From Candidatus Nomurabacteria bacterium (GTDB lineage: Bacteria > Patescibacteriota > Minisyncoccia > Phycocordibacterales > UBA9973): a stretch of DNA of 64,000 nt. Of this stretch, positions 11,212-58,760 are shown one piece after another. Positions within the stretch are counted from its first letter, which is position 1. Each line of letters begins with the position of its first letter. A program made the translations under genes and the position numbers. The notes under the pieces are model-generated. The model made no database searches. It was not told where the DNA came from and saw only the letters and a list, made by a program, of their open reading frames with translations. The DNA lies in assembly GCA_023267375.1 (NCBI GenBank), contig JAHFNJ010000003.1:28579-92578 (forward strand), given 5' to 3'.

Positions 11212-11240
11212 GTAGATTGATTATACAATTTAAGTACACA

Positions 11241-11266
11241 AAACCCCACCGATTGGTGGGGTTTTG
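11241..11266 (-). terminator. Terminator hairpin downstream of the giant surface protein gene
   Basis: aaaccccaccgattggtggggtttt. Confidence 0.6.
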
Positions 11267-11288
11267 AAAAATCTATTATGAACAAAGA

Positions 11289-14999: not shown

Positions 15000-16487
15000 A
15001 TGATTAATGAGAAAAAGGATGACAATACCCAAAATAAGCATACAAAGAAAACTGAAAAGGATTTTGAAAAAATGTTTGGTAACCATGCAATGAGTATACT
15101 AAAAAAGTGTACTTTTACGAACACAGCTCCTGTGGTACGCTGTGGTCATCCTCATATGTTACGCTCACTTATCCGCCAGAATAAAGCAGGTATCATCCTC
15201 GTTGGAGACATCACCTTATTTGCACTGTCTCTTGTGTTCACCCTTCTCCTTCGCTATGGAAATACGGCTTTCGCCGCAGTGTGGAAAGAGCACTTCTCCC
15301 CATTCCTCGTACTCCTCTGTGTCTGGATCTTCGTTTTTTATATTGCCGGTCTGTACACGTACACGACATTTCGAACGACGATCGACAACGCAAAACTTTT
15401 TGGCACAACACTTCTCGTAAATTTTTTCCTCTCCATCGGCATCTTCTATGCATTCAGCGACTTCTTTCAGTTAACACCAAAAATAAACCTCGTTATCTTC
15501 ACACTGCTCTTTGCTGTCTCTGATGGGCTCTGGCGCTACCTTCTCGCTCGAATACTTTCATCAAAACATCGACGGGAAACAATTCTTTTTGTCGCAACAT
15601 CACCGCTTATCACTGTAGTGCAGGAACACCTTACATCCCATCCGCAACTCGGAATAGTTTCACATACGTTTACTGGATCTGATTCCCTTTCCACTGCTGT
15701 AACACAAAAGAGATGCGACACTGTTGTCGTCGATGCGGCAATGATTAAAAATGCACCCGTAGCGAAATCACTCTATGAATTATTTGCACATCACATTAAA
15801 GTGCAGACACTTGGCGACTTTTATGAATCACTCTTCAATCGTGTGCCACTGAGTGAAATTGAAGAAGAGTGGTTCGTGCAAGAAATGGGACAGAAAACAG
15901 ACGTGTACGGCTCACTCCGACAACTCTTCGATACTGTTTTTGCTATTACCCTTGTGATTATCTTGTCCCCACTTTTTTGTATCGTTGCAATCCTTGTAGT
16001 ACTCACATCACACGGACCTATTATTTACCGACAGCAACGCATTGGAAAAGATGGCGAAGTATTTACGCTCTACAAATTTCGCAACATGTATCACCGCGCT
16101 GAAAAAAATCCTGATGCAACAAACGGCAATCCGACCTGGTGGCAATCTAATGACGCACGCGTAACCCCTGTCGGAAAACTCTTACGAAAAACACACCTCG
16201 ATGAACTGCCCCAACTGTTGAATATCATCAAAGGTGACATGCTCTTAGTCGGCCCTCGCCCAGAACGCCCAGAATTTGTAGCGACACTTGAAGAACAAAT
16301 CCCCCACTACATGATTCGCCACATCATAAAACCGGGGATCACTGGCTGGGCACAGGTACAGTATCACTATGGCGGATCGGTTGCAGCAAGCGCAACTAAA
16401 CTTGAATATGATATTTACTACTTAAAACACCGATCGTTTGTGCTCGATGCACTCATTCTTCTAAAGACACTCCGCCATTTTTTCTAA
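15000..16487 (+). CDS. Polyprenyl-phosphate sugar phosphotransferase (bacterial sugar transferase, WbaP/CpsE-like)
   Basis: 495 aa; N-terminal TM helices; C-terminal Bac_transf domain 'LRQLFDTVFAITLVIILSPLFCIVAILVVLTSHGPIIYRQQRIGKDGEVFTLYKFRNM…LLVGPRPERPEF'. True start may be internal. Confidence 0.8.
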   Translation: MINEKKDDNTQNKHTKKTEKDFEKMFGNHAMSILKKCTFTNTAPVVRCGHPHMLRSLIRQNKAGIILVGDITLFALSLVFTLLLRYGNTAFAAVWKEHFSPFLVLLCVWIFVFYIAGLYTYTTFRTTIDNAKLFGTTLLVNFFLSIGIFYAFSDFFQLTPKINLVIFTLLFAVSDGLWRYLLARILSSKHRRETILFVATSPLITVVQEHLTSHPQLGIVSHTFTGSDSLSTAVTQKRCDTVVVDAAMIKNAPVAKSLYELFAHHIKVQTLGDFYESLFNRVPLSEIEEEWFVQEMGQKTDVYGSLRQLFDTVFAITLVIILSPLFCIVAILVVLTSHGPIIYRQQRIGKDGEVFTLYKFRNMYHRAEKNPDATNGNPTWWQSNDARVTPVGKLLRKTHLDELPQLLNIIKGDMLLVGPRPERPEFVATLEEQIPHYMIRHIIKPGITGWAQVQYHYGGSVAASATKLEYDIYYLKHRSFVLDALILLKTLRHFF

Positions 16488-16502: not shown

Positions 16503-17309
16503 TCACCTACCTATAGTTCGATAAAGTTTTGCACGTGAAAAGAAATATGAATGTTTCCTAAATAAGTACAGTAGACCAGCGAGATGCTTTAGTGCGAGTA
16601 ACGGCTTCCGGTAAGAAGCGCGCTGTGCATGATGGATGACAATAGCACGTGGACAAAAAATCACTTTGTAGCCCGCCTTCCAGACACGTATGCAAAAATC
16701 AACATCTTCTGGGGCATAAAAAATATGCTCGTCAAAAAACCCAACCTCCTTAAAAAGCTCCTTCTTCATACACCAGCACGCAGAAATACCGTAATCAGGA
16801 TACGTAGTGACATTTCCCTCGTACAACTCATCTCGCACGAGCGCGCCATGAAAAATTCCAAACAGTGAGTAACTAGCACGCAAGACCTTCGTCACAATAG
16901 TTGGAAATCGTTTTATAGATTCTTGTACAGATCCATCAGGGAAAATAATTTTTGGACAGATGATTCCCGGCATTTCATGCTTCCCTAGTTCCTCAATCAT
17001 TGCAGAGAGAGCGCCAGGAGTAGTTTCTGTATCCGCATCAATGCATATAACATACTCCCCTGTTGCCTGTGCGATGCCAACATTCCTTGGGTATGTGGTG
17101 CCTTTATTGCTCGTGTATTTTGTGAGATGAATTGACGCATTACTTGAATACGCTGTCTCAACAATAGAGACAGTACTGTCGGTTGATCCATTATCAAAGA
17201 TAAGAACTTCAGTCTCTAGCCCTGACGCCTTAGCATCTGACAACAAGCTATCGATACATTTTTTAATATACCGCTCGCTGTTCCACGTAAGAATAATGAT
17301 TGATATCAT
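16503..17309 (-). CDS. Glycosyltransferase family 2
   Basis: GT-A motifs 'ISIIILTWNSERYIKKCIDSLL…LIFDNGSTD…DADT'. Start trimmed to Met 'MISIIIL' to remove overlap with upstream gene. Confidence 0.75.
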   Translation of the reverse strand: MISIIILTWNSERYIKKCIDSLLSDAKASGLETEVLIFDNGSTDSTVSIVETAYSSNASIHLTKYTSNKGTTYPRNVGIAQATGEYVICIDADTETTPGALSAMIEELGKHEMPGIICPKIIFPDGSVQESIKRFPTIVTKVLRASYSLFGIFHGALVRDELYEGNVTTYPDYGISACWCMKKELFKEVGFFDEHIFYAPEDVDFCIRVWKAGYKVIFCPRAIVIHHAQRASYRKPLLALKHLAGLLYLFRKHSYFFSRAKLYRTIGR

Positions 17310-17325
17310 ACTCTGAAAGTATACC

Positions 17326-18234
17326 TTATGATTTACGAAAAAGACTCCGATAAAAAGTGGCTGCGATTCCAGATACATTCGCGAGTGTGCAAAGATAGGA
17401 AACGCCCATCATTTTTATAAGCGGATATGAAATATCTTTCCTTCCCCATTTTGTAATGAGCCCAGGCAATCGAAATGCGAGGATCGGCAAAAACAAACTC
17501 GCAATTCGTGCGCTAATCCAAAACACATTCTTACCTCTTCCCTGCCACACAGCTACACACCCCCGGCCAACACGAAAATGTTTTTCAAGTAATTCTTTAC
17601 AATTCCTTGTTGGATGAAATACCACAACCGAAGCGTCGTACACAAGGGATTTTCCACCTTTCCATGCATTATTTGTCCAAAGTGCATCTCCTCCCGAAAC
17701 CGCCGTATCAGGGAATAAACCAAGTTCTGTAAAAAGAGTCTTTGGTATAAAAACGTTCGCAGTCTGTGCCGAATGACGCAATGTAATAAATAACTCATTA
17801 TTTAAATTGATGAGCGAGTCGAGCAGTTCAGCACTTGTTTTTTTCTCAGAAAAAAGAAATTCTATTTTTCCCCCAACAATACCGCCTTGTTCTTGCGACA
17901 CCCGAGCAATGCCTCGAGAAATCCAATCAGGCTTTGCGACACAGTCGGCATCAGTAAAAGCAAGAATACTCCCCTTTGCAACTGCAATACCTCGATTTCT
18001 CGCCACATATGAATTGCGCGCTTTGCTTTCTTCAATACGCGTAACTGGGTATGCGGCTGCTATTGTGTTCGTGGCGTCAGTTGATCCATTATCAATAATA
18101 AGTATTTCGTACTTCTCTTTCGGATACTCTTGCGCCAGTAGAGACTCGATATTTTTCGCAATATAGTTCTCTCCGTTATATACAGGAACGACAACTGAAA
18201 CAAATGGCAATTCTTCATTAGACGACATGTTCAT
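17326..18234 (-). CDS. Glycosyltransferase family 2
   Basis: 'VSVVVPVYNGENYIAKNIESLLAQEYPKEKYEILIIDNGSTDAT…DADC'. Confidence 0.75.
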   Translation of the reverse strand: MNMSSNEELPFVSVVVPVYNGENYIAKNIESLLAQEYPKEKYEILIIDNGSTDATNTIAAAYPVTRIEESKARNSYVARNRGIAVAKGSILAFTDADCVAKPDWISRGIARVSQEQGGIVGGKIEFLFSEKKTSAELLDSLINLNNELFITLRHSAQTANVFIPKTLFTELGLFPDTAVSGGDALWTNNAWKGGKSLVYDASVVVFHPTRNCKELLEKHFRVGRGCVAVWQGRGKNVFWISARIASLFLPILAFRLPGLITKWGRKDISYPLIKMMGVSYLCTLANVSGIAATFYRSLFRKS

Positions 18235-19234
18235 GTTCTCGTGCGGTAATTTTTGTAAATAAATAATCGCGATTACACAACGTAATCAATGCTCCGACAA
18301 AAATAACAAATGATGATACAAGCACAATTGGAAGCGAGAGTACGAGTCGCCCAATTGATGTCCAACGTTCCCTGACGATGTAGTACGAGCGGAGGAAAAA
18401 TTTATATACTTTAAATGCAACAAAAAAACCAAGATTAAAAAAACGGCGAGCGAGAGAATATTTTTCAACGACCGTCCCGTCGGGTGAAAAATAAAAATCA
18501 GCTTTCACTATTTCGTCCGCGCCAAAAATGAGCATCCGGTACCACCAATCCCAAAAATTGCCAGGCGGGGCATGGTACCCTTTTGCATGGGGAGCCTGCA
18601 CAATAGAATAACCACGACATTTGAGTAACCGTATCCATTCGGCAATACTTGAACGATAGAGCGGCAGTTTCGTAAAAAACGGCACCGAAAGCATCACGTC
18701 TTTTTTAATAGCAAAATTATTCAAATAAAAATTCCGCGCAAAACGAGGATACGCATTGTTACTCGTGATGTTCGACATCCAGATCAGCTGAATAGCCATT
18801 GTATATATAGACACAACTCGTATCCGCGTCTCCCCCGCAACAATACTTGCACCCGGGGCCCACATAAAAGTGTAGAGCATATTTTCGAGCCATGTTTTGT
18901 CATACACAACATCCGAATCAGCAAATACAACAATGTTCCCCGTCGCACGTTCTGCCCCGCGCATTTTTGCTCCGGTATATTCAAGGTCCCCCGACTCTAC
19001 ACAAACAGCAGCCCAAGGATACTTCGTGTGTAAAAGAGTAATTGTTTCTGGCGATACATGACCACCGGCAATAAGCAGCACTTCTTTTGCTTGAGTAATC
19101 GGATAGGTCTGCTCTTTCAATGAATCGAGTGTCTGCTCAAGATCGGCGATCCCAGCCATGCCAAGATTCTCCGTTTCAACAACGATAGAAAAGCTAAGAC
19201 TCTCGAGCTGTTCCTTAGTAGGACGGTATTCCAT
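18218..19234 (-). CDS. Glycosyltransferase (GT-A-like) with C-terminal TM segment
   Basis: 338 aa; 'FSIVVETENLG…LDSLKEQTYPI…FADSDVVYD'; hydrophobic C-terminus. Confidence 0.6.
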   Translation of the reverse strand: MEYRPTKEQLESLSFSIVVETENLGMAGIADLEQTLDSLKEQTYPITQAKEVLLIAGGHVSPETITLLHTKYPWAAVCVESGDLEYTGAKMRGAERATGNIVVFADSDVVYDKTWLENMLYTFMWAPGASIVAGETRIRVVSIYTMAIQLIWMSNITSNNAYPRFARNFYLNNFAIKKDVMLSVPFFTKLPLYRSSIAEWIRLLKCRGYSIVQAPHAKGYHAPPGNFWDWWYRMLIFGADEIVKADFYFSPDGTVVEKYSLARRFFNLGFFVAFKVYKFFLRSYYIVRERWTSIGRLVLSLPIVLVSSFVIFVGALITLCNRDYLFTKITAREHEHVV

Positions 19235-19297: not shown

Positions 19298-19714
19298 ATG
19301 ACTTATGAAATAAATACTCAGGATGCCATCAGTGAGACGCTCGACGGCGAAACAATTGTTATAAACCTAAAGAGCGGAAATTACTACAGTTTAAATGAAA
19401 CTGGTACGCTCGTATGGACCTACATTGTCGAAAAGTACAGCACCGAATCCATGGCCGCAACCTTGGCAAGCCACTATGGCGCAGACACAAGTACTGTTGA
19501 AAAAGCTATTGCAGACTTTATCGAGACCTTACAAAAGGATTCGCTTATTCAGGAAACAACCCAAACAAATAACTCTCCAATACCTTCACCAACAACAGAG
19601 AAAAAATTGTTCGTTGCTCCAAAAATCGAAAAATACGAAGATATGCAGGAAATGATTATGGCTGACCCCGTACACGATGTTGATGAAATGGGCTGGCCTA
19701 ATTTGAAAAAGTAA
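19298..19714 (+). CDS. PqqD-family (RiPP-recognition-element-like) protein with ~65-aa C-terminal extension
   Basis: 'LDGETIVINLKSGNYYSLNETGTLVWTYIVEKYSTESMAATLASHYGADTSTVEKAIADFIETLQKDSLIQE' fits PqqD/RRE pattern; tail ends '…DVDEMGWPNLKK'. Confidence 0.7.
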   Translation: MTYEINTQDAISETLDGETIVINLKSGNYYSLNETGTLVWTYIVEKYSTESMAATLASHYGADTSTVEKAIADFIETLQKDSLIQETTQTNNSPIPSPTTEKKLFVAPKIEKYEDMQEMIMADPVHDVDEMGWPNLKK

Positions 19715-19718
19715 GCGT

Positions 19719-20399
19719 ATGGAACACCCCCTCATCTCTGTTATTATCCCAACGTTCAATACAGGGAAATACATATCGGAAGCAATTACTTCTGTCTTTG
19801 CACAAAAGTACCCGAACATAGAAATCATTGTTGTTGATGATGGCTCGACCGACAACACCCTCGAGGTACTTAAAACATTTGGTGACACCATAAAAGTCAT
19901 TTCTCAAAAAAATACCGGACCTGCAGCTGCGCGAAACACTGGATTGCGAAACGCACGAGGCACTATTGTTGGACTCCTCGATGCTGATGATATTTGGACA
20001 GATGACTGCATCGAGAGCTTGCTCCCCTACGCGCTTAGCGATGAGTACGACTTTGCTCGCGGCATTACCAGATATTTCAAAGATGAAAATGGTACCCGTA
20101 TCTTCACCGACAAACTCTGGATAGAAGTACAAATGGGAACAGCATTATACAAAAAAACATTTCTCGACAAAGTAGGACCGTTTGATGAGACGATGCACTA
20201 CGGCGAGGATATGGATTGGAATATGCGCATGCTCGATCTAGGTGGCAGAGAAAAAAGAGTTGAGAAGATAGTGCTCTCGTACCGCAGACACGACACGAAT
20301 ATGACAAATGATAAAGAGCGCACTAAAAATGGTCTCCTTGAAGCATTTCGAAAACGAATCGATCGGAAAAAGACACAAAAACTGCATGACAAACAGTAA
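19719..20399 (+). CDS. Glycosyltransferase family 2 (short GT-A-only)
   Basis: 'ISVIIPTFNTGKYISEAITSVFAQKYPNIEIIVVDDGSTDNT…LDADDIW'. Stop overlaps start of next gene. Confidence 0.8.
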   Translation: MEHPLISVIIPTFNTGKYISEAITSVFAQKYPNIEIIVVDDGSTDNTLEVLKTFGDTIKVISQKNTGPAAARNTGLRNARGTIVGLLDADDIWTDDCIESLLPYALSDEYDFARGITRYFKDENGTRIFTDKLWIEVQMGTALYKKTFLDKVGPFDETMHYGEDMDWNMRMLDLGGREKRVEKIVLSYRRHDTNMTNDKERTKNGLLEAFRKRIDRKKTQKLHDKQ

Positions 20400-21483
20400 G
20401 AATCAAACAAAACATTTAAGCACTGACAATTACACCATCGTGCGAAAGAACTATTTTGACACAATAGTTGTTCCTGCATTGTCATCACTGCAAAAAAAGA
20501 CAGAGCCGATCATAAAAAACTACATCATCGCAGGAAAAAAAGTGCACTTAGTATTCTACTCCCCTATTCTTTCAGAGAAGATGTCGCACGCCCTCGAACA
20601 CCATAGTGGATTTTCTGGCGACCAAGGAGATCTTACGGTTCATCTCTGGGACTCAATAACAACAGAAACTAAAATGATGTCCCCATGGAGCAAGCCCGAA
20701 TACTCAGATCGGCAAACCAACGCGCAAAATACAATTGGTGATGCACATTTTTTGGGGGTCTATCTCTTCGGCGAAGAAACACTCAACCTCTACAACAAAG
20801 AAAATAAAGTGGCCTATTTTTGGACACGCGATGCAAACGTACTGCCTGATTGGATAAGTGCCGCCCCACTACGTACCCTCTTGCACTGGTTTTTATCAGA
20901 CTACAATATTCACCTTGTGCATGGCGGCGTAGTCGCAAGTGGTGGTAACGCGATACTGCTTGGCGCAAAAGGCGGATCCGGAAAATCAACAACGGCACTC
21001 TCCTCATTGCTCTCTGGTATGGACTATCTTGCTGATGATTACGTGGCAATTGAGATCGGAGAAAAAAATATCGCCTATAGCTTATACAACTCAGTGAAGA
21101 TAACTCCGAACACACTGAATGTCTTTCCGGAACTCTCTGAAAAAATATGGAACAAAGAAACCGTTGGCGGCGAATTAGATCTCGGAAAAGCTATCGTCTT
21201 TATGTCGAAATTTTTTCCAAAACAAATGGTGGAAAAATCAGAGCTGGTCGCTATATGCATTCCCACAATCAAGAATGAGACAAAAATTGTTCCCGCCAGC
21301 AAGCTTGCCACAATGCTGGCGCTCGCACCAACCATCCTTTTCCAACTGCCGCTTGCATCAAGCTCAAAGATGTCCGACTTAAAGGAAATCATCGCTACAA
21401 CCCCCTGCTATTTCCTTGAATTAGGGCCCGAGATCCGCAAGGTTCCAGAGGTACTTCAAGATTTTTTAAAGCACGCCAAATAG
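20386..21483 (+). CDS. HPr kinase/phosphorylase-related P-loop kinase (HprK-related kinase)
   Basis: 'HLVHGGVVASGGNAILLGAKGGSGKSTTALSSLLSGMDYLADDYVAI' matches HprK C-terminal Walker-A region. Start set to ATG 20386, which overlaps the upstream stop by 14 nt. Confidence 0.7.
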   Translation: MTNSKNQTKHLSTDNYTIVRKNYFDTIVVPALSSLQKKTEPIIKNYIIAGKKVHLVFYSPILSEKMSHALEHHSGFSGDQGDLTVHLWDSITTETKMMSPWSKPEYSDRQTNAQNTIGDAHFLGVYLFGEETLNLYNKENKVAYFWTRDANVLPDWISAAPLRTLLHWFLSDYNIHLVHGGVVASGGNAILLGAKGGSGKSTTALSSLLSGMDYLADDYVAIEIGEKNIAYSLYNSVKITPNTLNVFPELSEKIWNKETVGGELDLGKAIVFMSKFFPKQMVEKSELVAICIPTIKNETKIVPASKLATMLALAPTILFQLPLASSSKMSDLKEIIATTPCYFLELGPEIRKVPEVLQDFLKHAK

Positions 21484-21489
21484 CATATA

Positions 21490-22206
21490 ATGGCAGGTAT
21501 GGAACAAAACCCCCTCGTGAGCGTTGTTATGCCTGTCTACAATGCCGAAAAGTACGTTGATGCGGCACTTCAAAGCGTTTTTGGCCAAACCTACAAGAAT
21601 CTTGAAGTAATTTGCGTCTACGATAAATCAACCGACAAGTCACTCGACAGGCTAAAATCTTATGGAGATAAAATCCATCTTAGAGAGAACGGCGAGAAAC
21701 TTGGCATCGGCGGAGCACGCAATAATGGCATCGAAATTGCACAGGGGGCATTTCTCGCGTTCATGGATGCCGACGATATTTGGGAGCCACAAAAAATCGA
21801 ACGGCAAATTGAACAGTTTATAAAAGACCCGACACTGGATGTCAGTTTCACCTACATGCAATGTTTCTTAAGCGAAGATATCCCTGAAGAGGTAAAAAAA
21901 ATTCGCTACTGTAACCCTGATCCAATGCCGGGATACCTCGCTGCTGCCGCAGTTGTAAAGACCACCTCATTTCACAAAGTTGGATTATTCAATCCAAAAT
22001 GGAGGGTTGGCGAGTTTGTTGATTGGTCAAAGCGAGCAAAGGAACTACATCTCAAAATGGATATCATACCAGAAACACTACTACGACGAAGAATCCACGA
22101 AACAAATACCGGCGTCACTGAACGTCCATCGAGGAATGATTACATCACGATTATGCGAGAATCTTTGCAGCGAAAAAAGAACAAGGATAAAGAACATGAC
22201 TCCTAA
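21490..22206 (+). CDS. Glycosyltransferase family 2 (short GT-A-only), paralog of 19719..20399
   Basis: 'VSVVMPVYNAEKYVDAALQSVFGQTYKNLEVICVYDKSTDKS…MDADDIW'. Confidence 0.8.
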   Translation: MAGMEQNPLVSVVMPVYNAEKYVDAALQSVFGQTYKNLEVICVYDKSTDKSLDRLKSYGDKIHLRENGEKLGIGGARNNGIEIAQGAFLAFMDADDIWEPQKIERQIEQFIKDPTLDVSFTYMQCFLSEDIPEEVKKIRYCNPDPMPGYLAAAAVVKTTSFHKVGLFNPKWRVGEFVDWSKRAKELHLKMDIIPETLLRRRIHETNTGVTERPSRNDYITIMRESLQRKKNKDKEHDS

Positions 22207-24595
22207 ACTACCATTCCCAAAAAGTTTCCCGACGAAAGAAGAAACCAAGTTTCTACAGATGCTCTTGTCGAACGATTCAGATTTTCCAAAACTCTGGAAG
22301 GAATGGAAGGACACTGTTGTTTGGGAAGAGCTCGATCCGGCCACTTCTCGATTGCTCCCACTCGCCTATTTGCGAATTAAGAAACTCAATATTACTGATG
22401 AAATTACTGCTCGCGTAAAAGGAATCTACAAATCCGCGTGGGTAAAAAATCAGCGGCTCCTGCATGTAGTAAAACAAGTGGCAGAAACCTGTGACAAAGA
22501 ACACATCCCACTCATGCTCTTGAAGGGCATGCCGCTCATCCTTGAAGTCTATCGCGATCCTGGTGCACGTTTTTTGGGCGATGCAGATATTTTGATTCCA
22601 CCAGAACATGGACCACGCATCATACAGCTATTGAAAAAGAGTGGCTGGAGCTATGCTCATCCATGGGTCGCCGACAATCACAACCCAGTACCGAGCGTCT
22701 TCACAGTAATTAAATCAACAGAACTTGTTGATCACATGGGAGTCGAAATGGACGTCCATTGGAATATTTTTGCGGCCAATCACGGCGTCACGCTTCCGCG
22801 CGTTTTTCTGTTGGGCAAGATGCCTACGTTTGCGTTCCGAGAATACTTCTGGAAACACACTATTCCGATGACGGTAGATGGTGTTCCCTGCAAGCGGCTA
22901 TCCAACGAAGACATGCTCATTCATATCATCGTGCACGGAGCCGAAGGTAACACCCACCGCGCACTCCGCTGGGTTACTGATGCGATAACAACGATCAACA
23001 CACTCCCTATCGACTGGGAGGTAGTTATCAAACACGCCGAGCAATTCGGGTTTGCGATAGAACTCAAATTGGGCTTTGCCTACATCACAAAACATTTTGA
23101 TACTCCGATTCCCGATTCATTCATGCAACAACTTTCCCTGCTCCCCATTACAAAAGCAAAGCTACAAAAATATTACAAAATTGCAAATACCGAACACTCG
23201 AGGCGCATCAACATCCTCGGAAATATTCCCCTGCTCTGGTATGCCTATTTTAAATTCGAACCAGGTGTCTCATTCCCAAAAAATATCTTTGGATTCTTTA
23301 CCTACCTTCGTAAATCGTGGGGGCTTGAAAGCTATCGGAAGGTCGTTGCCTTTGCGATACATCACTACAAACGAAAATTGGAAACAAAAGATCCGACATT
23401 ACTCGATGGCACAAAAAAAGCGTTCTTCGATAGCGCCTATATCATTTCGGGTAAAGCAGTGTCGTTCATGGCGTCATTTGCCGTTATTACCGTATTAAGT
23501 AGAGCACTCCCGCGCGAGACTGCCGGCTCATACAACTACATAATCGCCACACTTGCCATTGTGAGCATTACCACACTCCCCGGAATGAATAATGCTTTGA
23601 CGAGAGCGATCGCAAAAGGCAATCACGGCAGCCTCCCGCATATGCTCCGAAAACGCCTTACATGGGGAATACTCGGTTCCGTTATCGCACTCATTATCGG
23701 CGTAATCTCATGGGCACAAGGAAATACTGCTGTTGGCATTGCCTTTCTCGTTGCAGCGCCGTTTGTCCCCCTGACTGACACGTTCAGCACATTTGCACTC
23801 AATTACTGGCAAGGTAAAAAACGTTTTGATAAAAGTGCGCTTATGGGAGCACTGTACTATGTCTTGCTCGCCCTCCTCTCACTTCCTGTTATTATCTTTT
23901 CACACAACCTGATTATCATCGTCCTGGGTGTCATGATCGCCCAAACGGCCTCAGGATTGCTCATCTACAGAAGCATCAAAAAAGAATCGGGAGAACGAGA
24001 TCATGCGTCTGAAAAACTAGGAATACACCTTACCTTCATCCAGGCATTGCATACCATCGCAGCACAAGCAGACAAAATTATCATCTGGCATTTATTCGGC
24101 GCATCGTTCACTGCGATATATACATTTGCTTCAACTCCGGTTTCAAAAGCAAACCAAATGATTCCGATTGGCATTATCTCACTCCCCCATTTAAGCCAGC
24201 AAGAGTTTACTCCACCACTGAAACGTCAGATGCTCAAAAAAACCTTCGCACTCTTTTTGGTTTCGTTTCCCCTGACACTTGCCGTCATCCTTCTAGCACC
24301 ATTTTTATATAAAATCTTCTTCCCTTCATATCCAGAATCAATCAGATATTTTCAATTCTTAATGATGCCGGTCGCGCTCGCTCCGATGGCAATATTGAAA
24401 TCATCATTTACTGCATTCAATAAAACAAGAGAACTCTACCTGAGCGAGACGAGCGGAACGATTATACGGATACTGTTGATGCTTATCTTTGCTCTCTTCT
24501 TCGGACTATTCGGTATTGTCATAGGTATTCTCATTTCCGCCGTCATCGATTTATGCATAACACTACTACTTTTCACGCGCGCAAAAACAGTCTAG
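22196..24595 (+). CDS. Fusion protein: N-terminal NTP_transf_5-type nucleotidyltransferase plus C-terminal polysaccharide flippase (MOP/Wzx-like)
   Basis: N-terminal 'LLKGMPLILEVYRDPGARFLGDADILIPPEHGP' (PF14907-like); C-terminal half has ~12 predicted TM helices typical of Wzx/PST exporters. Start set to ATG 22196, which overlaps the upstream stop by 11 nt. Confidence 0.65.
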   Translation: MTPKLPFPKSFPTKEETKFLQMLLSNDSDFPKLWKEWKDTVVWEELDPATSRLLPLAYLRIKKLNITDEITARVKGIYKSAWVKNQRLLHVVKQVAETCDKEHIPLMLLKGMPLILEVYRDPGARFLGDADILIPPEHGPRIIQLLKKSGWSYAHPWVADNHNPVPSVFTVIKSTELVDHMGVEMDVHWNIFAANHGVTLPRVFLLGKMPTFAFREYFWKHTIPMTVDGVPCKRLSNEDMLIHIIVHGAEGNTHRALRWVTDAITTINTLPIDWEVVIKHAEQFGFAIELKLGFAYITKHFDTPIPDSFMQQLSLLPITKAKLQKYYKIANTEHSRRINILGNIPLLWYAYFKFEPGVSFPKNIFGFFTYLRKSWGLESYRKVVAFAIHHYKRKLETKDPTLLDGTKKAFFDSAYIISGKAVSFMASFAVITVLSRALPRETAGSYNYIIATLAIVSITTLPGMNNALTRAIAKGNHGSLPHMLRKRLTWGILGSVIALIIGVISWAQGNTAVGIAFLVAAPFVPLTDTFSTFALNYWQGKKRFDKSALMGALYYVLLALLSLPVIIFSHNLIIIVLGVMIAQTASGLLIYRSIKKESGERDHASEKLGIHLTFIQALHTIAAQADKIIIWHLFGASFTAIYTFASTPVSKANQMIPIGIISLPHLSQQEFTPPLKRQMLKKTFALFLVSFPLTLAVILLAPFLYKIFFPSYPESIRYFQFLMMPVALAPMAILKSSFTAFNKTRELYLSETSGTIIRILLMLIFALFFGLFGIVIGILISAVIDLCITLLLFTRAKTV

Positions 24596-24601
24596 TACTT
24601 T

Positions 24602-25039
24602 ATGAAAACACCCAAGAAAAAACAAAAAATAGTCGGCTTCACCTGTGGCGCATTTGACCTCACGCACGCTGGGCACTACCTCATGTTTAAGGAATGTAAA
24701 CGTCAGTGCGATACGCTCATTGTTGGATTACAAATAGATCCTTCGGTTGATCGTCCGAATAAAAACAAACCAATACAAAGCTTGAAAGAACGTAAAATAC
24801 AGCTCGCTGCGTGTAAGTACATTGATACGATTGTGACCTACAAAACAGAGAAAGGACTCCTCGCTCTTCTTAAAAAAATAAATCCAGACATTCGCTTTAT
24901 GGGGGCTGACTGGAAAGGAAAAGAAAATTACTCAAGAGACAGGCTCCCTGACATGAAAGTCATCTATAACAGTCGCAAACACACCTACTCATCAACAAAT
25001 CTGCGAAAACGCATCGTCGCAGCAGAGAAGAAAAACTAG
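24602..25039 (+). CDS. Cytidylyl/adenylyltransferase-like nucleotidyltransferase (TagD / HldE-domain-II family)
   Basis: 145 aa; 'VGFTCGAFDLTHAGHYLMFKECKRQCDTLIVGL' is the (H/T)xGH nucleotidyltransferase motif. Confidence 0.7.
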   Translation: MKTPKKKQKIVGFTCGAFDLTHAGHYLMFKECKRQCDTLIVGLQIDPSVDRPNKNKPIQSLKERKIQLAACKYIDTIVTYKTEKGLLALLKKINPDIRFMGADWKGKENYSRDRLPDMKVIYNSRKHTYSSTNLRKRIVAAEKKN

Positions 25040-26061
25040 CGCTCCTGATTCTTTTTGAGCTCCCATCCCCAAGCAGTTTTTACAATGTCTGCCAAAGAAT
25101 ACTTCGGCACCCACTGCAGTAGAGAAGCCGCTTTACTCGCGTCAGCGTATGCGATTGGCATGTCCCCCGCTCTTCGTGCTCCAACCTCGTAGGGAACCTT
25201 TATATTATTTTCTGTTTCAAATGCACTGATTATTTCCTTAACCGAAATACCCTTTCCTGTTCCAATATTAAAAACATCATAGAATGAAGAAGTTGCAGCA
25301 TCAAGATGCTCAAGTGCGGAAACATGCGCCTTCGCCACATCGGCAACATGGAGATAGTCTCGCACACAGGTGCCATCTGGGGTTGCATAATCGTCACCAA
25401 AAACAGTAAACGGTTTTCCAGTCTTCACCGCATCCGTGACCACCGAAACAAGATTTTCTGGCGCCTTATCTGTATTTTCCCCAAGCAAACCTGATGGATG
25501 TGCTCCTGCTGGATTGAAGTATCGCAAAGTGATTGCCTTACAACCCTCTGTATTTTTTACGTAGTCTTCAAGAAGCTGTTCGCCGAGTAATTTTGTCATA
25601 CCATAGGGAGTTCCAGGTTTTATCGGACTTATTTCGGCATACGGAGGCACCGTTTCAGGATCATAGACCGCACACGTTGAAGAAAATATAAAATGAGAAG
25701 TCTTACATAGTTTAGAAATAAGAAGCGCTCCTAGTAATCCATCAACATTATTTTGGTAATATGCCAGCGGGTTTTTTAAAGAATCTGGAACTGACTTAAA
25801 CGCCGCGAGATGGATAATTGCATCAAATGTCTTCCCCTGAAACACCTCTTCGAGTTTTTTGTAATCACACAAATCGATCTCAATATTTTCAATCCTCTTG
25901 CCAGTTATTGTTTCAATTCGCTCAAAAACCAACGGGTTAGAATTTGAAAAATTATCAATCGAAACAACATCGTACCCTGCAGCAACAAGCTCCACGATTG
26001 TATGGCTTCCAATGTACCCCGCCCCGCCAGTGACGAGAATTTTTTTACGAGTGTTTATCAT
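25036..26061 (-). CDS. galE: UDP-glucose 4-epimerase
   Basis: 341 aa; 'KILVTGGAGYIGSHTIVELVAAGYDVVSIDNFSNS', YxxxK, full-length SDR extended family. Confidence 0.85.
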   Translation of the reverse strand: MINTRKKILVTGGAGYIGSHTIVELVAAGYDVVSIDNFSNSNPLVFERIETITGKRIENIEIDLCDYKKLEEVFQGKTFDAIIHLAAFKSVPDSLKNPLAYYQNNVDGLLGALLISKLCKTSHFIFSSTCAVYDPETVPPYAEISPIKPGTPYGMTKLLGEQLLEDYVKNTEGCKAITLRYFNPAGAHPSGLLGENTDKAPENLVSVVTDAVKTGKPFTVFGDDYATPDGTCVRDYLHVADVAKAHVSALEHLDAATSSFYDVFNIGTGKGISVKEIISAFETENNIKVPYEVGARRAGDMPIAYADASKAASLLQWVPKYSLADIVKTAWGWELKKNQER

Positions 26062-26150: not shown

Positions 26151-27044
26151 TTAATAAAACTCGGTTACAACGACAACCCCAGAGCTACCGTTACCACCAC
26201 TTTTTATCGCACCATTACAATTGCCACCACTACCACCAGAGCCAAAATTAGAAGCTGGTAAACCATTAGCAGCAACAGCAATAGATCGTGATGGAGCACC
26301 ACCACCAAAGAAGGAAGAACCTCCACAATAAGTTGGTTCAGCTGAACCAACGGCTCCACCACTACTTTGCCCGCTGATATTTAAATCACCACCAACACCG
26401 ATACCTCCCTGAGATCCATCAGAATTTTTAACAGCAGCAGTCTGCCCAACTCCTCCTTTTCCACCAGTAGCAGAGCAATGAGCACCGAATGAAGAAGTTC
26501 CCCCATCACCGCCAGCTGTTATTGGAGCTCCTCCAGTACCACCGATCCCAACTGAAACAGTTTCAGTCGCGCTAAGTGAACTAGCAGCAATAATTTTTCG
26601 GGAATAACCAGCACCGGCTCCAGCGCCACCACCATATGACTGACATCCGCCGCCGCCTCCGCCTCCGCCAACCAATTCGACGAGTATATACTTAACACCA
26701 ACAGGTTTTGTCCATAGTGTATCTGCTGTATAAACATGGATAGTTGGAACTTGGGTCGCACTAACCGTCCCACACATGGTCAGCCAGACTGATCCGGTGT
26801 AATAGTTAAGACAGTTTTCATCGAGATTATAGATAATGAGTCCTTGGGACAATTTCGGAAAGGCATTCCGTTGGGCCGTCGTAACACGAGGGGCAAGAAA
26901 CCCCTTGTCGATCGCCGAAGCATCGAGTATTGCAGAACTATCTGGTTTTGCTCCAGTAGCATTAACACTGACACCTTGAGCATATACGGGAACCGTATAC
27001 AACGAGCAATACAATAAGAAAGAAAGTACAATAATCTTTTTCAT
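26151..27044 (-). CDS. Secreted glycine-rich repeat protein
   Basis: 297 aa; signal peptide; N-terminal 'KGFLAPRVTTAQRNAFP…GLIIYNLDENCLNYYTGSVW'; long Gly-rich C-terminal region including GGGGGGGG. Confidence 0.6.
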   Translation of the reverse strand: MKKIIVLSFLLYCSLYTVPVYAQGVSVNATGAKPDSSAILDASAIDKGFLAPRVTTAQRNAFPKLSQGLIIYNLDENCLNYYTGSVWLTMCGTVSATQVPTIHVYTADTLWTKPVGVKYILVELVGGGGGGGGCQSYGGGAGAGAGYSRKIIAASSLSATETVSVGIGGTGGAPITAGGDGGTSSFGAHCSATGGKGGVGQTAAVKNSDGSQGGIGVGGDLNISGQSSGGAVGSAEPTYCGGSSFFGGGAPSRSIAVAANGLPASNFGSGGSGGNCNGAIKSGGNGSSGVVVVTEFY

Positions 27045-27155: not shown

Positions 27156-29060
27156 CTACTGAGATCCAGTTATTCTCTTAAACTCCGCGAGATACGCACT
27201 TGATGCGGAGATATTCGGATTCAACTCATACGCTTTCGTAAAATACTCTTTCGCTTTTTCGAATTCCCTCGTATAGGTAAAGAGCTGTCCATAAATCCAG
27301 TAACCACGCGGATCAGCCGGGGCAAGCGCCACTGCTCTGTCGGTATAAGATAACGCACGAGCAATAGTCTCTTCTGAGTAGTCACCACTTATTGAAATAT
27401 CTGCATTCATGAGATTTGCGCATGCAAGCCAGAGACGATGATTGTAGGTGGCAGTATCAGCAACCAAATCAACTTGCTGCAAGAGTTCGAGCGTCTGCTC
27501 GTGAACACGCGAAGCTTTCACAGGGTCAGTCTGTAATTCTTTCATTTTCGATTTTACGTCTTTGTATTTAAAGTCAACAATATAGCCGACATCACTGCCA
27601 TTCCCCATTGAAGATATGGCAGTGAGGGTACTTGGATCATTCCCTAGAACACCAAGCATCTTTCTTGCTTTGTGTGCCGGCTGGTGGACAAAAAAGATAT
27701 AGGCAGGAATGAGGATAATAAAACAAGCGCTGGCAATAAAGGTGCTCTGCTCTCGTAAATCACGAGGTAGCTTCTTTGGGTCGAGCACCACAGGCAACTG
27801 TCCAGCCAGCACGCCATAGAAGGCAAAGAGGGCAACATACGTCGTCGGGGTATCGAACACCACCATATCTTGCAAAAAATAAGCGAAAAACATTCCGACA
27901 AAGAGAGAGAGTTCCCCTTTCGAGAATCTGTCTTTTTTAAAGAGTAGATATGGCAGGTATAAAAATAGCGAAAGAAACAAAAGATACAGAAGACCTCCGG
28001 GAACACCCCCCGCAACAAAAAATTCAAGGACGACATTGTGTGGGCGATCAATGTCTGGTTCATTAGTAATTCCAGGCTCAAGGATTTTTGGGTCAAAATA
28101 TTTGGAAAAGACAATATTAAAATTATCGAGCCCCCAACCAAAAAGCGGTCGTTCTTGTATCCCTTGATAAGCCGTATGCCAAAAAATGAGGCGTCCACCA
28201 TGTACGGCAGTGCTGAATTTTTGATGCAGGCGTGAACTTGGAATCAAAACAAGGATTCCCAAAACGAGAACACTGATGATACTTATAGCAATGAGTGAGA
28301 AGCCAATAATTTTCTTTTTCTTATTTAGACTTAACGCAAGCCATAAGAAGCAAGCAAAAATACTTCCAATAAATACTGAAGCGGCGGCGGCCCGTGCGCC
28401 AATCATAAAAAGTACACTCACAAAAAGAATGCTGCCAAGCAGATACCATAGTTTCGTGCGCCAGTATTGAGCACTGAAGAAAAGAATACTGCCGGCAAAA
28501 AAAGCAAACACGAGGTATGCACCAGTATATGAAGAATTGCCCGTGAGGCCTCCTCGTCGAGCTGCTTGGCCTAAAACCTCTGGAAAGAATGTCGACAAAG
28601 CAAGAACAACTCCAGACAGAAAGAACGCGGTAAGTACTTTTTTAAGAAAACCAACTCCTTCTTTCCTTGCAAGCGAAGCAACCATGAGTCCAAAGAAAAA
28701 ACAGTGATATAAAAAGATAAGTCCGGTACCACGCAAAAACGATGACCAGAAAGCTGTATTAGGATTTTGAGAAAAAGCTGCACTTACTGAAAGCCATACC
28801 AAAAGAAGTAATGGTACCGTAAACACGAGAAGCTGCTTTTTCGAGAGCCGATAGCGATTATTAACGGCAAGCAGATAGACCCAAAACACGAGCATCGCTT
28901 CCACAAGCCCCATAAAGAAAAAGCTTTTTGAAGTTGTGAACGGAAATAGTCGATGTGGGATGACAATCAACGGTACCGCAAAAATCCCAAGAAGTGCCAA
29001 GAAGGCAAAGATATCTTCCATAAACCCCCCGCGACTGCTGTATCTACTGTTCTGTGGCAT
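27156..29060 (-). CDS. O-antigen-ligase-like polytopic membrane protein with C-terminal TPR repeats
   Basis: 634 aa; ~12 TM helices with Wzy_C-like loop region; C-terminal TPR-like 'KAKEYFTKAYELNPNISASSAYLAEF'. Confidence 0.6.
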   Translation of the reverse strand: MPQNSRYSSRGGFMEDIFAFLALLGIFAVPLIVIPHRLFPFTTSKSFFFMGLVEAMLVFWVYLLAVNNRYRLSKKQLLVFTVPLLLLVWLSVSAAFSQNPNTAFWSSFLRGTGLIFLYHCFFFGLMVASLARKEGVGFLKKVLTAFFLSGVVLALSTFFPEVLGQAARRGGLTGNSSYTGAYLVFAFFAGSILFFSAQYWRTKLWYLLGSILFVSVLFMIGARAAAASVFIGSIFACFLWLALSLNKKKKIIGFSLIAISIISVLVLGILVLIPSSRLHQKFSTAVHGGRLIFWHTAYQGIQERPLFGWGLDNFNIVFSKYFDPKILEPGITNEPDIDRPHNVVLEFFVAGGVPGGLLYLLFLSLFLYLPYLLFKKDRFSKGELSLFVGMFFAYFLQDMVVFDTPTTYVALFAFYGVLAGQLPVVLDPKKLPRDLREQSTFIASACFIILIPAYIFFVHQPAHKARKMLGVLGNDPSTLTAISSMGNGSDVGYIVDFKYKDVKSKMKELQTDPVKASRVHEQTLELLQQVDLVADTATYNHRLWLACANLMNADISISGDYSEETIARALSYTDRAVALAPADPRGYWIYGQLFTYTREFEKAKEYFTKAYELNPNISASSAYLAEFKRITGSQ

Positions 29061-29135: not shown

Positions 29136-31148
29136 TTAAGCATCAAGCGTGTCTGACAAAGTGTCATAGTCGCCTGCTGGAGCTAGATCAAGAGTTTCAT
29201 CAGCGCCAGATCCGTCTGTATTGTAACCAACTTGTGTAAGTTGGAGGTGTACATAGTGACCAGCAGTAATGGTTCCGATCTGTTCAGACATAGTTGCAGT
29301 GAAGGTCTTTGTATCACCTTCATCAACAGTGTAGTAACCAGAGAAATCAGTATCTGAAGCACTTGAAGAAAGTGTTGAAGCAGATTCTGTTCCTGCAGTT
29401 GTTACACTACCAGCAGTTTCATCATACATAGTGTATGAGAGACCACTTGCACCAGCGATAGTTGCACCCTGTTCGATTGCCTTCGGAATGTAGAAGGTAT
29501 CGCCGAACGCACTAACATCGAAGCTTACTTTCCATGCCAACTTGGTGTTTTCACCAGCATTGTTGGTAGTAACGATTGGATTTGAACCAATCACTTTGAA
29601 GTTAGAGACAGTAAGACCTGTTGCGTAGAGCTGCATAGTGTTACCACTTGGAGTTCCACTAACATTACCAATGTCATCGCCAGTATCAGCATCTTCGAAA
29701 TCATTTTCATCGGCTGCTGAAGTAGCGTAGATGGTGTCACTGTTTGCGTAACCACCAGCGTTTTGTGACTTGAATTTGATCTTAACAGTTACTTTCATTG
29801 TATCACCAGCATCAATAACGACGTCGTCGTCTTCAATGTCAGTGAAGTTAAATGTAGTACTTGAATCAGCGTCTGGAGTATCATCGGTTGAGTACGTAGT
29901 ACCATCAATTACGAGTGTGATGTCATCAACGATTTCATCGTTGTCTGAACCACCTGTAGTGATTGTAACTGGGAAGTTATCAATCTTTACATCGCCGCCA
30001 TCAGAATCAGCTTTGATTTTGAAGACTGCAATTGTTTCTGTGGTTGAAGATGTTTCATCAACCTGGAGCGTTCCCGCTGCAGGAGTTGAAGAATCCTTGG
30101 TGATAGTAAGGTCAGAGTTTGCACCTGAAGCTTCAAGTGAGAAACTAGCTGTACCAGTACCATTGTCTACAGTGTTGATGCCAGCACCGTCAACGAAGCG
30201 AAGGCCTGTTGAAGAGTTTGTGTCATCAATGTATACATCCCAATCTTCGCCATCATCAATACCATCGATTGAATCAGTTACGTCAGCAGCAACTGTAAGT
30301 TCAGCGTGTACGCCTTCCTTGAAGTTTGCAGCAAGACCACTCATACGAACGCGGTAGATGCCTGAGCCTGAAGATGTTTCATCCCAGTCAGACTTTGATG
30401 AAGAATCCATAGAACCGAGTTCTTTTGAACCATCCATCAAGTAAACTGTGTCAAAAACTTTCCAAGGCTTAGTCTCATCGTTACCACCATTTGCTTCGAA
30501 TACGATGTCAGCGCGTGTGAGCTGAGCATCAGCATCCTTCACAGTGAATTTGATGGTTGCAACATCTGCCTTTGAAGCACCTTCCTTAATAGAAGTGTCA
30601 TCAGCTGAAGTTGTCTTTACGTTTGAGATTGAAGTTTCGCCACCAGAAAGATTTCCTCCTGATGATGAAGTGTTTGAATCACACTTTGTTCCAGTTGTTG
30701 AACTGTAACCAGCTGTTGATGAACAACCTGCTGGGAGACCTGCTGAAGGACCTGAGTTACAAGCCATACCAGTTGTTGTACTGTAGCCTGAAGCTGAAGT
30801 ACAACCTGCTGGGAAGTTACCTGAAACTGAAGTTCCGCCATTAAGTACTGCCATAGAAGCAGGACCAACAACGCCGTCAGCTGTAAGACCAGCAGCAGCT
30901 TGCCATGCCATAACTGCGGTAGCGGTCTTTTGACCGAATGAACCGTCAGTTACGAGTGCAGGGTTAGCATAACCACCAGCATTCAAGATTTTCTGTAATT
31001 CCATTACTGCTGTGCCGGTTGAACCGACGCGGAGTGTTGGAGGAGTAAATGTATATGCACTTGCTACAGAAGCTGCAGCAAGAACAGCAACAAATACTGC
31101 CAATCCGAACACTGCCTTAGCAGCTTTAGATTTTAGTAAATTACTCAT
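29136..31148 (-). CDS. Secreted surface protein: N-terminal peptidoglycan-binding domain, Cys-containing repeats, Thr/Ser/Asp-rich beta-rich region
   Basis: 670 aa; signal peptide; 'LRVGSTGTAVMELQKILNAGGYANPALVTDGSFGQKTATAVMAWQAAAGLTADGVVGPASM' (PG_binding_1-like); repeats 'AGC(T/S)S(A/T)(S/A)GYS(T/S)TTG'. Confidence 0.65.
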   Translation of the reverse strand: MSNLLKSKAAKAVFGLAVFVAVLAAASVASAYTFTPPTLRVGSTGTAVMELQKILNAGGYANPALVTDGSFGQKTATAVMAWQAAAGLTADGVVGPASMAVLNGGTSVSGNFPAGCTSASGYSTTTGMACNSGPSAGLPAGCSSTAGYSSTTGTKCDSNTSSSGGNLSGGETSISNVKTTSADDTSIKEGASKADVATIKFTVKDADAQLTRADIVFEANGGNDETKPWKVFDTVYLMDGSKELGSMDSSSKSDWDETSSGSGIYRVRMSGLAANFKEGVHAELTVAADVTDSIDGIDDGEDWDVYIDDTNSSTGLRFVDGAGINTVDNGTGTASFSLEASGANSDLTITKDSSTPAAGTLQVDETSSTTETIAVFKIKADSDGGDVKIDNFPVTITTGGSDNDEIVDDITLVIDGTTYSTDDTPDADSSTTFNFTDIEDDDVVIDAGDTMKVTVKIKFKSQNAGGYANSDTIYATSAADENDFEDADTGDDIGNVSGTPSGNTMQLYATGLTVSNFKVIGSNPIVTTNNAGENTKLAWKVSFDVSAFGDTFYIPKAIEQGATIAGASGLSYTMYDETAGSVTTAGTESASTLSSSASDTDFSGYYTVDEGDTKTFTATMSEQIGTITAGHYVHLQLTQVGYNTDGSGADETLDLAPAGDYDTLSDTLDA

Positions 31149-58467: not shown

Positions 58468-58482
58468 ATTTTTTTCTTGCAT

Positions 58483-58760
58483 AAAAAAAACTCGTCCTCG
58501 CGTAACAATTAATGAATAATTGCAATGCAAGGACGAGTTTCTGCTCGTGGTACCACCTTACTTACTTCTCTTTACCGCTGTATCGGGCTTACCCGCTAGG
58601 ATCTACTCGCCAAATAGCTTTCTGCCTAGAGCCTGCCTGCCAGCAGGCAGGCTCGGAGGTGATTACTCTCCTTAAGCTGTAGTTCCATCATACGAATCAT
58701 CCTAAAAAAAAGCAACCCCATCCGATAAAGGATGGGGCGCAATACTGTTTACTGTGGGAT
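58483..58760 (-). promoter_or_regulatory. T-box riboswitch leader of ileS
   Basis: RNA strand contains T-box consensus 'AAGGUGGUACCACGAG' then terminator 'ACUCGUCCUUGCAUUGC…GCGAGGACGAGU' + U8; UGGU bulge predicts discriminator A, matching the tRNA-Ile in this window. Confidence 0.6.
58703..58738 (-). terminator. Terminator of gene 58766..59455
   Basis: ccccatccgataaaggatgggg plus U-run on the minus strand. Confidence 0.65.

Follow-up and report, generated by a model that had tools for sequence, protein, structure and literature searches.

A conserved fusion of a PF14907 nucleotidyltransferase module to a Wzx-type flippase in a glycan locus of Candidatus Nomurabacteria

Architecture and conservation of the fused protein

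The DNA analyzed here (the window) is a stretch of 64,000 nucleotides from a Candidatus Nomurabacteria bacterium (GenBank assembly GCA_023267375.1; contig JAHFNJ010000003.1, positions 28,579–92,578 of the forward strand), and window coordinates are used throughout. Within a locus for surface-glycan synthesis, a single gene on the + strand (22196–24595) encodes a protein of 799 amino acids that joins a PF14907 nucleotidyltransferase module to a Wzx-type flippase of the MOP superfamily in one uninterrupted open reading frame (ORF). Both Pfam domains were detected in this protein: NTP_transf_5 (PF14907) matched residues 50–301 (E = 1e-36; 127.2 bits vs. a gathering cut-off of 31.2), and Polysacc_synt (PF01943) matched residues 413–656 (E = 9e-15; 55.3 bits vs. 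a cut-off of 28.2). When the C-terminal half was analyzed in isolation, its PF01943 score was 60.8 bits. By these matches, the two halves can be assigned with confidence to families already described, PF14907 and PF01943 (MOP superfamily). NCBIfam gave no match for the whole fusion or for either half, and the source annotations of fused homologues read only 'O-antigen/teichoic acid export membrane protein'.

The likely start codon is the ATG at 22196, which lies ~9 nt downstream of a Shine-Dalgarno-like motif (AAGGA) and overlaps the stop codon of the upstream gene for a family 2 glycosyltransferase (GT2) by 11 nt; the stop codon of the fused gene occupies 24593–24595. A longer mechanical ORF starting from TTG at 21980 was rejected because homologues start 4–12 residues before the motif LPYPKSFP and because the ATG at 22196 is preceded by the Shine-Dalgarno-like motif.

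The sequence-only reading that preceded this analysis had proposed a physical fusion of a nucleotidyltransferase (residues ~1–230) to a polysaccharide-exporter membrane domain (from residue ~480), and had named a frameshift or sequencing error as the finding that would speak against it. A 6.2-kb stretch containing the fused gene was identical in a separate assembly from an SRA run. In a search of 5.8 billion clustered proteins, 20 further proteins of 790–826 amino acids were found that aligned over the whole query with 42–55% identity; all of them carried both Pfam domains, and they came from independent metagenomes in JGI, ENA, NCBI, and Logan data. The same architecture was accordingly present in 21 independent 90%-identity clusters from four data sources, and the region around the domain junction was conserved in the alignment of the fused homologues. 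These data confirmed that the fusion is genuine and conserved across homologues. The existence of split versions in relatives would favor an assembly or sequencing error that joined two genes, but the identical second assembly, the independent clusters, the uninterrupted frame, and the conserved junction make such an artefact hardly credible.

The N-terminal module extends over residues 1–398 (22196–23389, +), beyond the limit of ~230 first proposed. Its stand-alone homologues, proteins of 390–410 amino acids, aligned to residues 1–395 with 30–42% identity, and a helical extension at residues 300–398 bears the conserved motif LGNxPLLWYAYW. The PF14907-like signature that the sequence-only reading had pointed out (LLKGxPL...GARFLGDADILI) was present in this module, with the catalytic signature at residues 110–131 (K110-G111 ... 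G128-D129-A-D131; 22523–22588, +). Among 30 fused and stand-alone relatives, K110, G111, D129, D131, and H188 were invariant and D186 was nearly invariant; D186 and H188 are likely to provide a third element of the metal site. Because the catalytic residues are invariant or nearly invariant in these relatives, the transferase module looks catalytically competent.

A structural model of the N-terminal half alone was obtained with AlphaFold2 (AF2) at a predicted local distance difference test (pLDDT) score of 89.9 and a predicted template modeling (pTM) score of 0.89. Its best Foldseek matches were proteins of the nucleotidyltransferase fold, namely the uncharacterised nucleotidyltransferase-like protein 5uvd, the tRNA nucleotidyltransferase toxin MenT1, and the sugar-hydroxyl (adenylyl) nucleotidyltransferases ANT(2'')-Ia and LnuA. 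A profile of the N-terminal half compared with PDB sequences yielded nothing significant, and a Pfam scan showed no weak relations, e.g., to LicD, even at E 10.

The two domains are connected by a hinge of five residues (399–403; 23390–23404, +), which was the only internal segment with pLDDT <50 in the AF2 model of the whole protein. This model had a pLDDT of 87.6 and a pTM of 0.56, and the relative orientation of the two domains in it is uncertain. The hinge marks a former gene boundary: in two related loci with separate genes (L037 and L041), the stop codon of the transferase and the start codon of the flippase fall in the equivalent region.

The flippase domain of the MOP superfamily (Wzx/PST type) comprises residues 404–799 (23405–24592, +), so that the membrane domain is present as first described but begins at residue ~404 rather than 480. 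In the AF2 model, this half formed 12 long helices, in line with the MOP pattern of 12 transmembrane helices in two six-helix bundles with both termini on the cytoplasmic side; a Kyte-Doolittle count, which gave only seven helices, was replaced by the helices of the model. For a topology with the N-terminus inside and 12 modelled helices, the inside loops contained 23 Lys and Arg residues and the outside loops four. Because of this positive-inside charge distribution, the transferase module is predicted to be cytoplasmic, the placement for which the sequence-only reading had suggested a topology prediction.

Comparison of the C-terminal half with solved structures showed the best match to the E. 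coli lipid III flippase WzxE (PDB ID: 9g9n; target-normalised TM-score, 0.73), followed by MATE and MurJ transporters. The fused protein resembles Wzx proteins in its 12 transmembrane helices, inside N-terminus, best structural match, and genomic setting alongside a priming phosphotransferase, glycosyltransferases, and Wzy_C; it differs from WzxE in sequence (13–14% identity) and in carrying a cytoplasmic N-terminal enzyme of 400 residues. Stand-alone flippases of ~410 amino acids aligned to residues 405–797 of the fusion with 30–46% identity, and the flippase half belongs to a Patescibacteria-centred subfamily to which no NCBIfam model corresponds. Two other members of this subfamily, P0082 (784 amino acids) and P0119 (751 amino acids), carry different cytoplasmic enzymes at their N-termini, a GT4/GT1 glycosyltransferase and an NAD-dependent sugar epimerase. 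Fusion to an enzyme seems to recur in this flippase subfamily.

The operon and the surrounding glycan locus

The fused gene occupies the fifth position in a compact operon on the + strand, whose genes abut or overlap. The first gene (19298–19714, +) encodes a PqqD-like peptide-binding protein (PF05402, E = 3e-14) of the type known as the recognition element (RRE) of peptides that are made on ribosomes and modified after translation (RiPPs). The best solved relative of this protein was the lasso B1 protein TbiB1 (E = 2.4e-9), and it matched NF033536 (E = 9e-16), with a score below the NCBIfam lasso cut-offs (57.8 vs. 80). In the C-terminal part of the protein (~39 residues; 19595–19711), a variable linker rich in Ser, Thr, and Pro is followed by the tail DMQEMLLADPIHDVDExGWPxLK, the core of which, including DPxHDV and GWP, was invariant in nine loci from Patescibacteria to Anaerolineae. 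The Anaerolineae homologue, 34% identical, keeps the tail, and tail-bearing genes were also located at L034:2177–2638, L011:5001–5486, and L012:2189–2575. The tail matched no Pfam family and had no Ser or Thr at its invariant positions; it could serve as a docking or leader-like peptide that is part of the protein itself.

The second gene (19719–20399, +) encodes a small soluble GT2 (PF00535, E = 5e-40), the position of which is conserved in most related loci. It is followed by a gene for an HprK-like P-loop kinase of ~365 amino acids containing the motif GGSGKST (20386–21483, +; start set from homologues). The mechanical ORF begins at 20308, 26 codons upstream of all homologue starts; the probable start is the ATG at 20386, with which the kinase gene overlaps the end of the GT2 gene by 14 nt. 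The kinase matched Hpr_kinase_C, TIGR04352, and HPr kinases in the PDB weakly, and its orthologues have weak or faint precomputed matches to ScmC (PF27840); it was conserved in 12 related loci. The combination of a PqqD-family protein and an HprK-related P-loop kinase outside lasso clusters is also a feature of the HPr-rel-A system, but the scores for TIGR04352 (27.7 vs. a cut-off of 200) and TIGR04353 (18.2 vs. 35) indicated that the proteins of the window are at most distant relatives of that system, on which our literature search found no published study.

The fourth gene (21490–22206, +), directly upstream of the fused gene, encodes a second small GT2 (PF00535, E = 1.4e-33). Downstream of the fusion, the operon ends with a gene for a cytidylyltransferase-like protein of the RfaE domain II or TagD-like type (24602–25039, +; PF01467, E = 1e-15), for which TIGR02199 and TIGR01518 scored below their cut-offs. 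This last gene was found in the genome of the window only and is absent from the corresponding position in L004, L008, L010, and L014. A scan of the operon for promoters and terminators gave nothing above chance.

The operon is embedded in further genes for glycan synthesis. Upstream, a polyprenyl glycosylphosphotransferase that would act as the priming enzyme (15000–16487, +; TIGR03025, 340 bits vs. a cut-off of 296; PF02397, Bac_transf) is followed by three divergent GT2 genes on the – strand (16503–17378, 17326–18234, and 18218–19234, together 16503–19234; PF00535). Downstream lie genes for the UDP-glucose 4-epimerase GalE (25036–26061, –; TIGR01179, 364 bits vs. a cut-off of 262) and for a Wzy_C membrane protein with a C-terminal tetratricopeptide repeat (27156–29060, –; PF04932, E = 4e-16), which may be of the polymerase, ligase, or O-oligosaccharyltransferase type. 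The Wzy_C protein had no NCBIfam match; L004, L008, L010, L012, and L014, and thus no fewer than five related loci, contain its gene in a syntenic position. With a priming phosphotransferase, five GT2 genes, GalE, and Wzy_C, the locus is, by its gene content, a glycan locus of the Wzx/Wzy type. A clade-specific hidden Markov model detected no second member of the fusion's flippase family in the 64-kb window, and a Pfam scan of its larger ORFs detected no other match to Polysacc_synt or MurJ.

Several genes for secreted or predicted surface proteins accompany this locus. Between GalE and Wzy_C, a gene at 26151–27044 (–) encodes a secreted glycine-rich protein (PF21722, Gly_rich_2; PTL_trimer is also on record), which is absent from that position in L004, L008, and L010. 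The locus is flanked by genes for large predicted surface proteins at 9547–14804 (–) and 29136–31148 (–), comprising a beta-helix protein, a protein of 1171 amino acids with CHB_HEX_C, Fn3_assoc, and PG_binding_1 domains, and a Ser/Thr-rich protein of 670 amino acids, the syntenic counterparts of which in L004, L010, and L006 carry PG_binding_1. These flanking proteins are possible acceptors of the glycan. Elsewhere in the window (54943–58530, –), a class I aminoacyl-tRNA synthetase of the Ile/Leu/Val type (1195 amino acids) contains a domain of the histidine-phosphatase superfamily (PF00300, E = 1.8e-36; residues 546–712) inserted in the middle of its catalytic domain.

Recurrence of the gene cassette and origin of the fusion

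The gene order PqqD-like protein, GT2, HprK-like kinase, GT2, and transferase (hereafter the cassette) recurred in at least 12 loci, including that of an Anaerolineae genome (L034). In nearly all loci examined, a small GT2 gene was located directly upstream of the transferase gene; the exception was L034, in which an ABC exporter gene lies between them, and L036 was outside this comparison, its contig beginning ~145 nt upstream of the transferase gene. The exporter varied by lineage, being a MOP flippase that is fused, adjacent, or nearby, an ABC exporter, or none. An ABC exporter adjoined the GT2–transferase pair in L034, L042, and L044. These three loci contain a variant cassette, which in L034, a metagenome-assembled Anaerolineae genome (GCA_016926915.1), occupies L034:2177–9167 in the order PAP2 phosphatase, PqqD-like protein, HprK-like kinase, GT1, GT2, GT2, ABC exporter (type IV fold), and PF14907 transferase. 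There, the genes for exporter and transferase share 32 nt, models for MsbA, TAP, type I secretion, and bacteriocin exporters scored alike and below their cut-offs, and no priming polyprenyl phosphotransferase was found within 8 kb.

The fused protein also occurred with fewer partners. In L006/L007, it is accompanied by three GT2 genes, and neither a PqqD-like nor an HprK-like gene was found in the 4.1 kb upstream (L007, to the contig end) or the 10 kb downstream (L006), an arrangement that favors a role of the transferase with the glycan genes alone. Many members of the wider flippase subfamily (L016–L033) had no cassette within 10 kb.

The fusion is rare, as the sequence-only reading had supposed. 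An exhaustive HMMER scan of 1.84 billion representatives of 50%-identity clusters retrieved two clusters with the full-length fusion, the other best matches being stand-alone N-terminal or stand-alone C-terminal halves. Among 185,579 species genomes (one genome per species), a scan with patterns of the flippase half only (alignment A1) found 20 related loci, two of which contained the fusion, and a metagenome scan with patterns of the N-terminal half found nine loci; these pattern-based locus scans and the word-indexed protein searches sample part of the family only. The labels of the related loci were mostly Paceibacterota, Patescibacteria, Parcubacteria, Minisyncoccales, and Nealsonbacteria, which places the source organism of the window in the Candidate Phyla Radiation. 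Our literature search found no paper on this fusion architecture or this cassette; queries on HprK-related kinases, NTP_transf_5, and Patescibacteria flippase fusions returned nothing relevant, the sole mention of PF14907 being incidental.

The split relatives suggested how the fused gene arose. In L037, the transferase stop codon lies 3 nt before the flippase ATG, and in L041 the two genes overlap by 4 nt in different frames. In L012, the closest split locus, two sulfotransferase genes lie between transferase and flippase (L012:6223–7960, –). Since the halves are adjacent or overlapping genes in split relatives, the fusion appears to have joined the last gene of the cassette to the adjacent flippase gene of a surface-glycan locus by loss of a stop codon. 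In neighbour-joining trees of each half, constructed without support values, the fused proteins fell into one clade with the same three subgroups, in which a few split members were nested. The simplest reading of these data is that neighbouring genes with coupled translation were joined long ago and have on occasion been split again.

An alternative is that the fusion involves no functional coupling. The two halves could serve separate processes, the fused gene having arisen opportunistically and persisting as harmless in the compact genomes of Patescibacteria; in agreement with this, no more than a stop codon or a 4-nt overlap separates the split forms from the fused one, unrelated enzymes (a GT4 and an epimerase) are joined to flippases of this subfamily, and each half is widespread without the other. 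We nevertheless consider this explanation doubtful, because the fusion has been kept across homologues of 42–55% identity with a conserved linker and the two halves form congruent subclades. In addition, an exporter of an unrelated type stands at the same cassette elsewhere, which argues that export is part of the pathway, and all partners of this flippase are enzymes of glycan synthesis rather than random neighbours.

A possible link between phosphate-directed tailoring and export

The only characterized counterparts of the cassette enzymes are found in the lasso-peptide clusters of Firmicutes, in which an HprK homologue acts as a kinase on the C-terminal serine of the precursor (PMC6993621; reviewed in PMC8498205). 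In the pseudomycoidin cluster of Bacillus pseudomycoides, PsmN is required for the addition of one or two hexoses to this phosphate, and its D134A/D136A mutant is inactive; the authors leave open whether PsmN is a glycosyltransferase of a new kind or makes the substrate of a glycosyltransferase (PMC6993621). The transferase module of the fusion resembles PsmN in having a DxD motif at nearly the same position (D129/D131 vs. D134/D136 in PsmN), in the association of its gene with those for a PqqD-type protein and an HprK-type kinase, and in being modelled as similar to ANT(2''), a likeness judged from motif position, gene company, and models. In contrast to the PsmN cluster, in which a precursor peptide is accompanied by a cyclase and an ABC exporter, the locus described here shows neither cyclase nor precursor, its cassette interleaves two small GT2 genes, and the enzyme forms one protein with a Wzx-type flippase in a glycan locus. 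Nucleotidyltransferase–B2 protease fusions are known in Firmicutes lasso clusters (PMC8498205) and provide a precedent for the joining of a PsmN-type transferase to a neighbour from its own pathway, although the partner there is a leader peptidase and not a membrane transporter.

Our preferred model, which we hold with moderate confidence, is that of a bifunctional inner-membrane protein in which the last cytoplasmic, phosphate-directed tailoring step is tethered to the flippase that exports the product. In this model, a PsmN-type PF14907 module on the cytoplasmic side precedes a Wzx-type flippase of 12 helices, with the five-residue hinge between them. The kinase would place a phosphate on the growing glycoconjugate at the cytoplasmic face, and the transferase module would elaborate this phosphate through its DxD metal site by adding a phosphodiester-linked sugar, as genetic evidence has shown for PsmN, or a nucleotidyl or phospho-alcohol group, while the small GT2 enzymes would add or extend sugars. 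The flippase domain would then move the finished unit, the carrier of which is most probably a polyprenol lipid or else a peptide, to the other side of the membrane as a substrate for the Wzy_C protein. Joined in one chain, the two activities would be held at a 1:1 ratio, with the last tailoring step placed at the entrance of the flippase.

A comparable arrangement operates in the teichoic acid pathway of Streptococcus pneumoniae, in which the MOP flippase TacF exports only units decorated by LicD phosphocholine transferases. LicD proteins have the nucleotidyltransferase fold, and the pathway also includes a kinase and a cytidylyltransferase. A cytidylyltransferase gene likewise follows the fusion in the window, but it is not conserved in related loci; moreover, LicD and TacF are separate proteins of different Pfam families, and the Pfam scan of the N-terminal half showed no relation to LicD.

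The sequence-only reading had taken the physical fusion as a sign that the transferase step is coupled to export. This view was supported in part: because the genes are adjacent or overlapping in split relatives and an ABC exporter stands beside the cassette elsewhere, a link between transferase and export is supported indirectly. The PqqD-like, HprK-like, and GT2 partners that define the system had been missed in that reading.

Several points weigh against the model of a tethered tailoring enzyme. Coupling of transferase and flippase is not obligatory, because a member of the flippase clade occurs with GT2 genes and without the transferase (L038), and because cassettes without an exporter in their flanks were found in L043 (10 kb downstream), L045 (~3 kb), and L011 (<1 kb). 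Given that other flippases of this subfamily are joined to a GT4 enzyme or an epimerase, the fusion of neighbouring genes may be partly opportunistic and may simply reflect gene compaction. The resemblance of the fusion to the logic of TacF and LicD is an analogy, the trees of the halves lack support values, and the relative orientation of the domains in the AF2 model is uncertain. Finally, the biochemistry of cassette-type enzymes is confined to lasso-peptide clusters (PMC6993621, PMC8498205), and the PqqD-like RRE, the HprK-like kinase, and the PsmN-type transferase are experimentally peptide-modifying only, which points to a peptide substrate.

This last point leads to an alternative in which no lipid-linked unit is involved and the cassette makes a peptide or protein glycoconjugate that is exported by the MOP domain or the ABC exporter. 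The PqqD-like protein would bind the terminus of a peptide or protein, the kinase would phosphorylate a serine, and the transferase and GT2 enzymes would build a phosphate-linked glycan similar to that of pseudomycoidin. Consistent with this, the PqqD-like protein is closest to leader-binding lasso B1 proteins, lasso precursors receive a phosphate at their C-terminal serine from HprK homologues and then hexose on this phosphate in a PsmN-dependent step (PMC6993621, PMC8498205), sulfotransferase genes occur beside the L012 cassette as reported at paeninodin-type lasso clusters (PMC8498205), and the L034 cassette has its own glycosyltransferases and ABC exporter without a priming phosphotransferase within 8 kb. 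However, of the lasso or RiPP hallmarks considered (cyclase and B2 peptidase, precursor gene, and RRE chaperone), only the PqqD-type RRE chaperone was found. No lasso cyclase (asparagine-synthetase-like) or B2 leader peptidase was encountered, the ORFs of the cassette and of the flanking glycan genes being all assigned to other families. No conserved extra ORF of ≥25 amino acids that could encode a precursor was found in 14 cassette loci, a search that shorter peptides or peptides encoded elsewhere would escape, and the genes of the window operon leave no gap between them that could hold one. None of the invariant residues in the PqqD-like tail is a Ser or Thr. The exporter is Wzx-like by sequence and structure and belongs to a classical Wzx/Wzy locus with a priming phosphotransferase and Wzy_C, and L006/L007 keeps the fusion with no PqqD-like or kinase gene in the available flanks. 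To our knowledge, export of RiPPs by MOP transporters has no precedent. Taken together, we regard a peptide or protein product without a lipid-linked unit as unlikely, if somewhat less so than an opportunistic fusion.

A regulatory role of the transferase, in which it would gate export by transferring a nucleotidyl group, for example, to the flippase, to a partner protein, or to the PqqD-like tail, seems very improbable. Some relatives with the nucleotidyltransferase fold modify proteins or RNA, as MenT1 does, and the invariant tail of the PqqD-like protein would offer a target; yet PsmN, the sole studied member of the family, is required for a biosynthetic modification (PMC6993621), and the module adjoins a GT2 gene in a biosynthetic operon in nearly all loci.

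More speculatively, and with a low probability in our estimate, the cassette could represent an undescribed, self-contained pathway of Patescibacteria and Chloroflexota, in which a glycan is built either on the phosphoserine of a carrier, be it a peptide or a protein, or on a different phosphate primer, and is handed directly to a dedicated exporter. Such a pathway would bypass the classical polyprenyl phosphotransferase, its exporter would be fused to the transferase in the present lineage, and the PqqD-like tail would be the recognition or carrier element. If this were true, surface glycoconjugates would be primed and exported in a way that is new, and lasso tailoring enzymes would have a function outside RiPPs.

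The PF14907 family is widespread, PsmN is its only studied member, and the family has so far been tied to lasso-peptide tailoring. The conserved fusion described here constitutes a Rosetta-stone link, which suggests that the substrate of a PF14907 enzyme is processed on the cytoplasmic side of the membrane while awaiting export. It also places the trio of PqqD-like protein, HprK-like kinase, and transferase known from lasso tailoring in loci for cell-envelope glycans that belong to uncultured Patescibacteria and Chloroflexota, in a five-gene cassette compact enough for heterologous expression. As a further case of an enzyme tethered to a flippase, the fusion bears on how flippases select finished substrates, and it touches the poorly known envelope biology of episymbiotic ultra-small bacteria.

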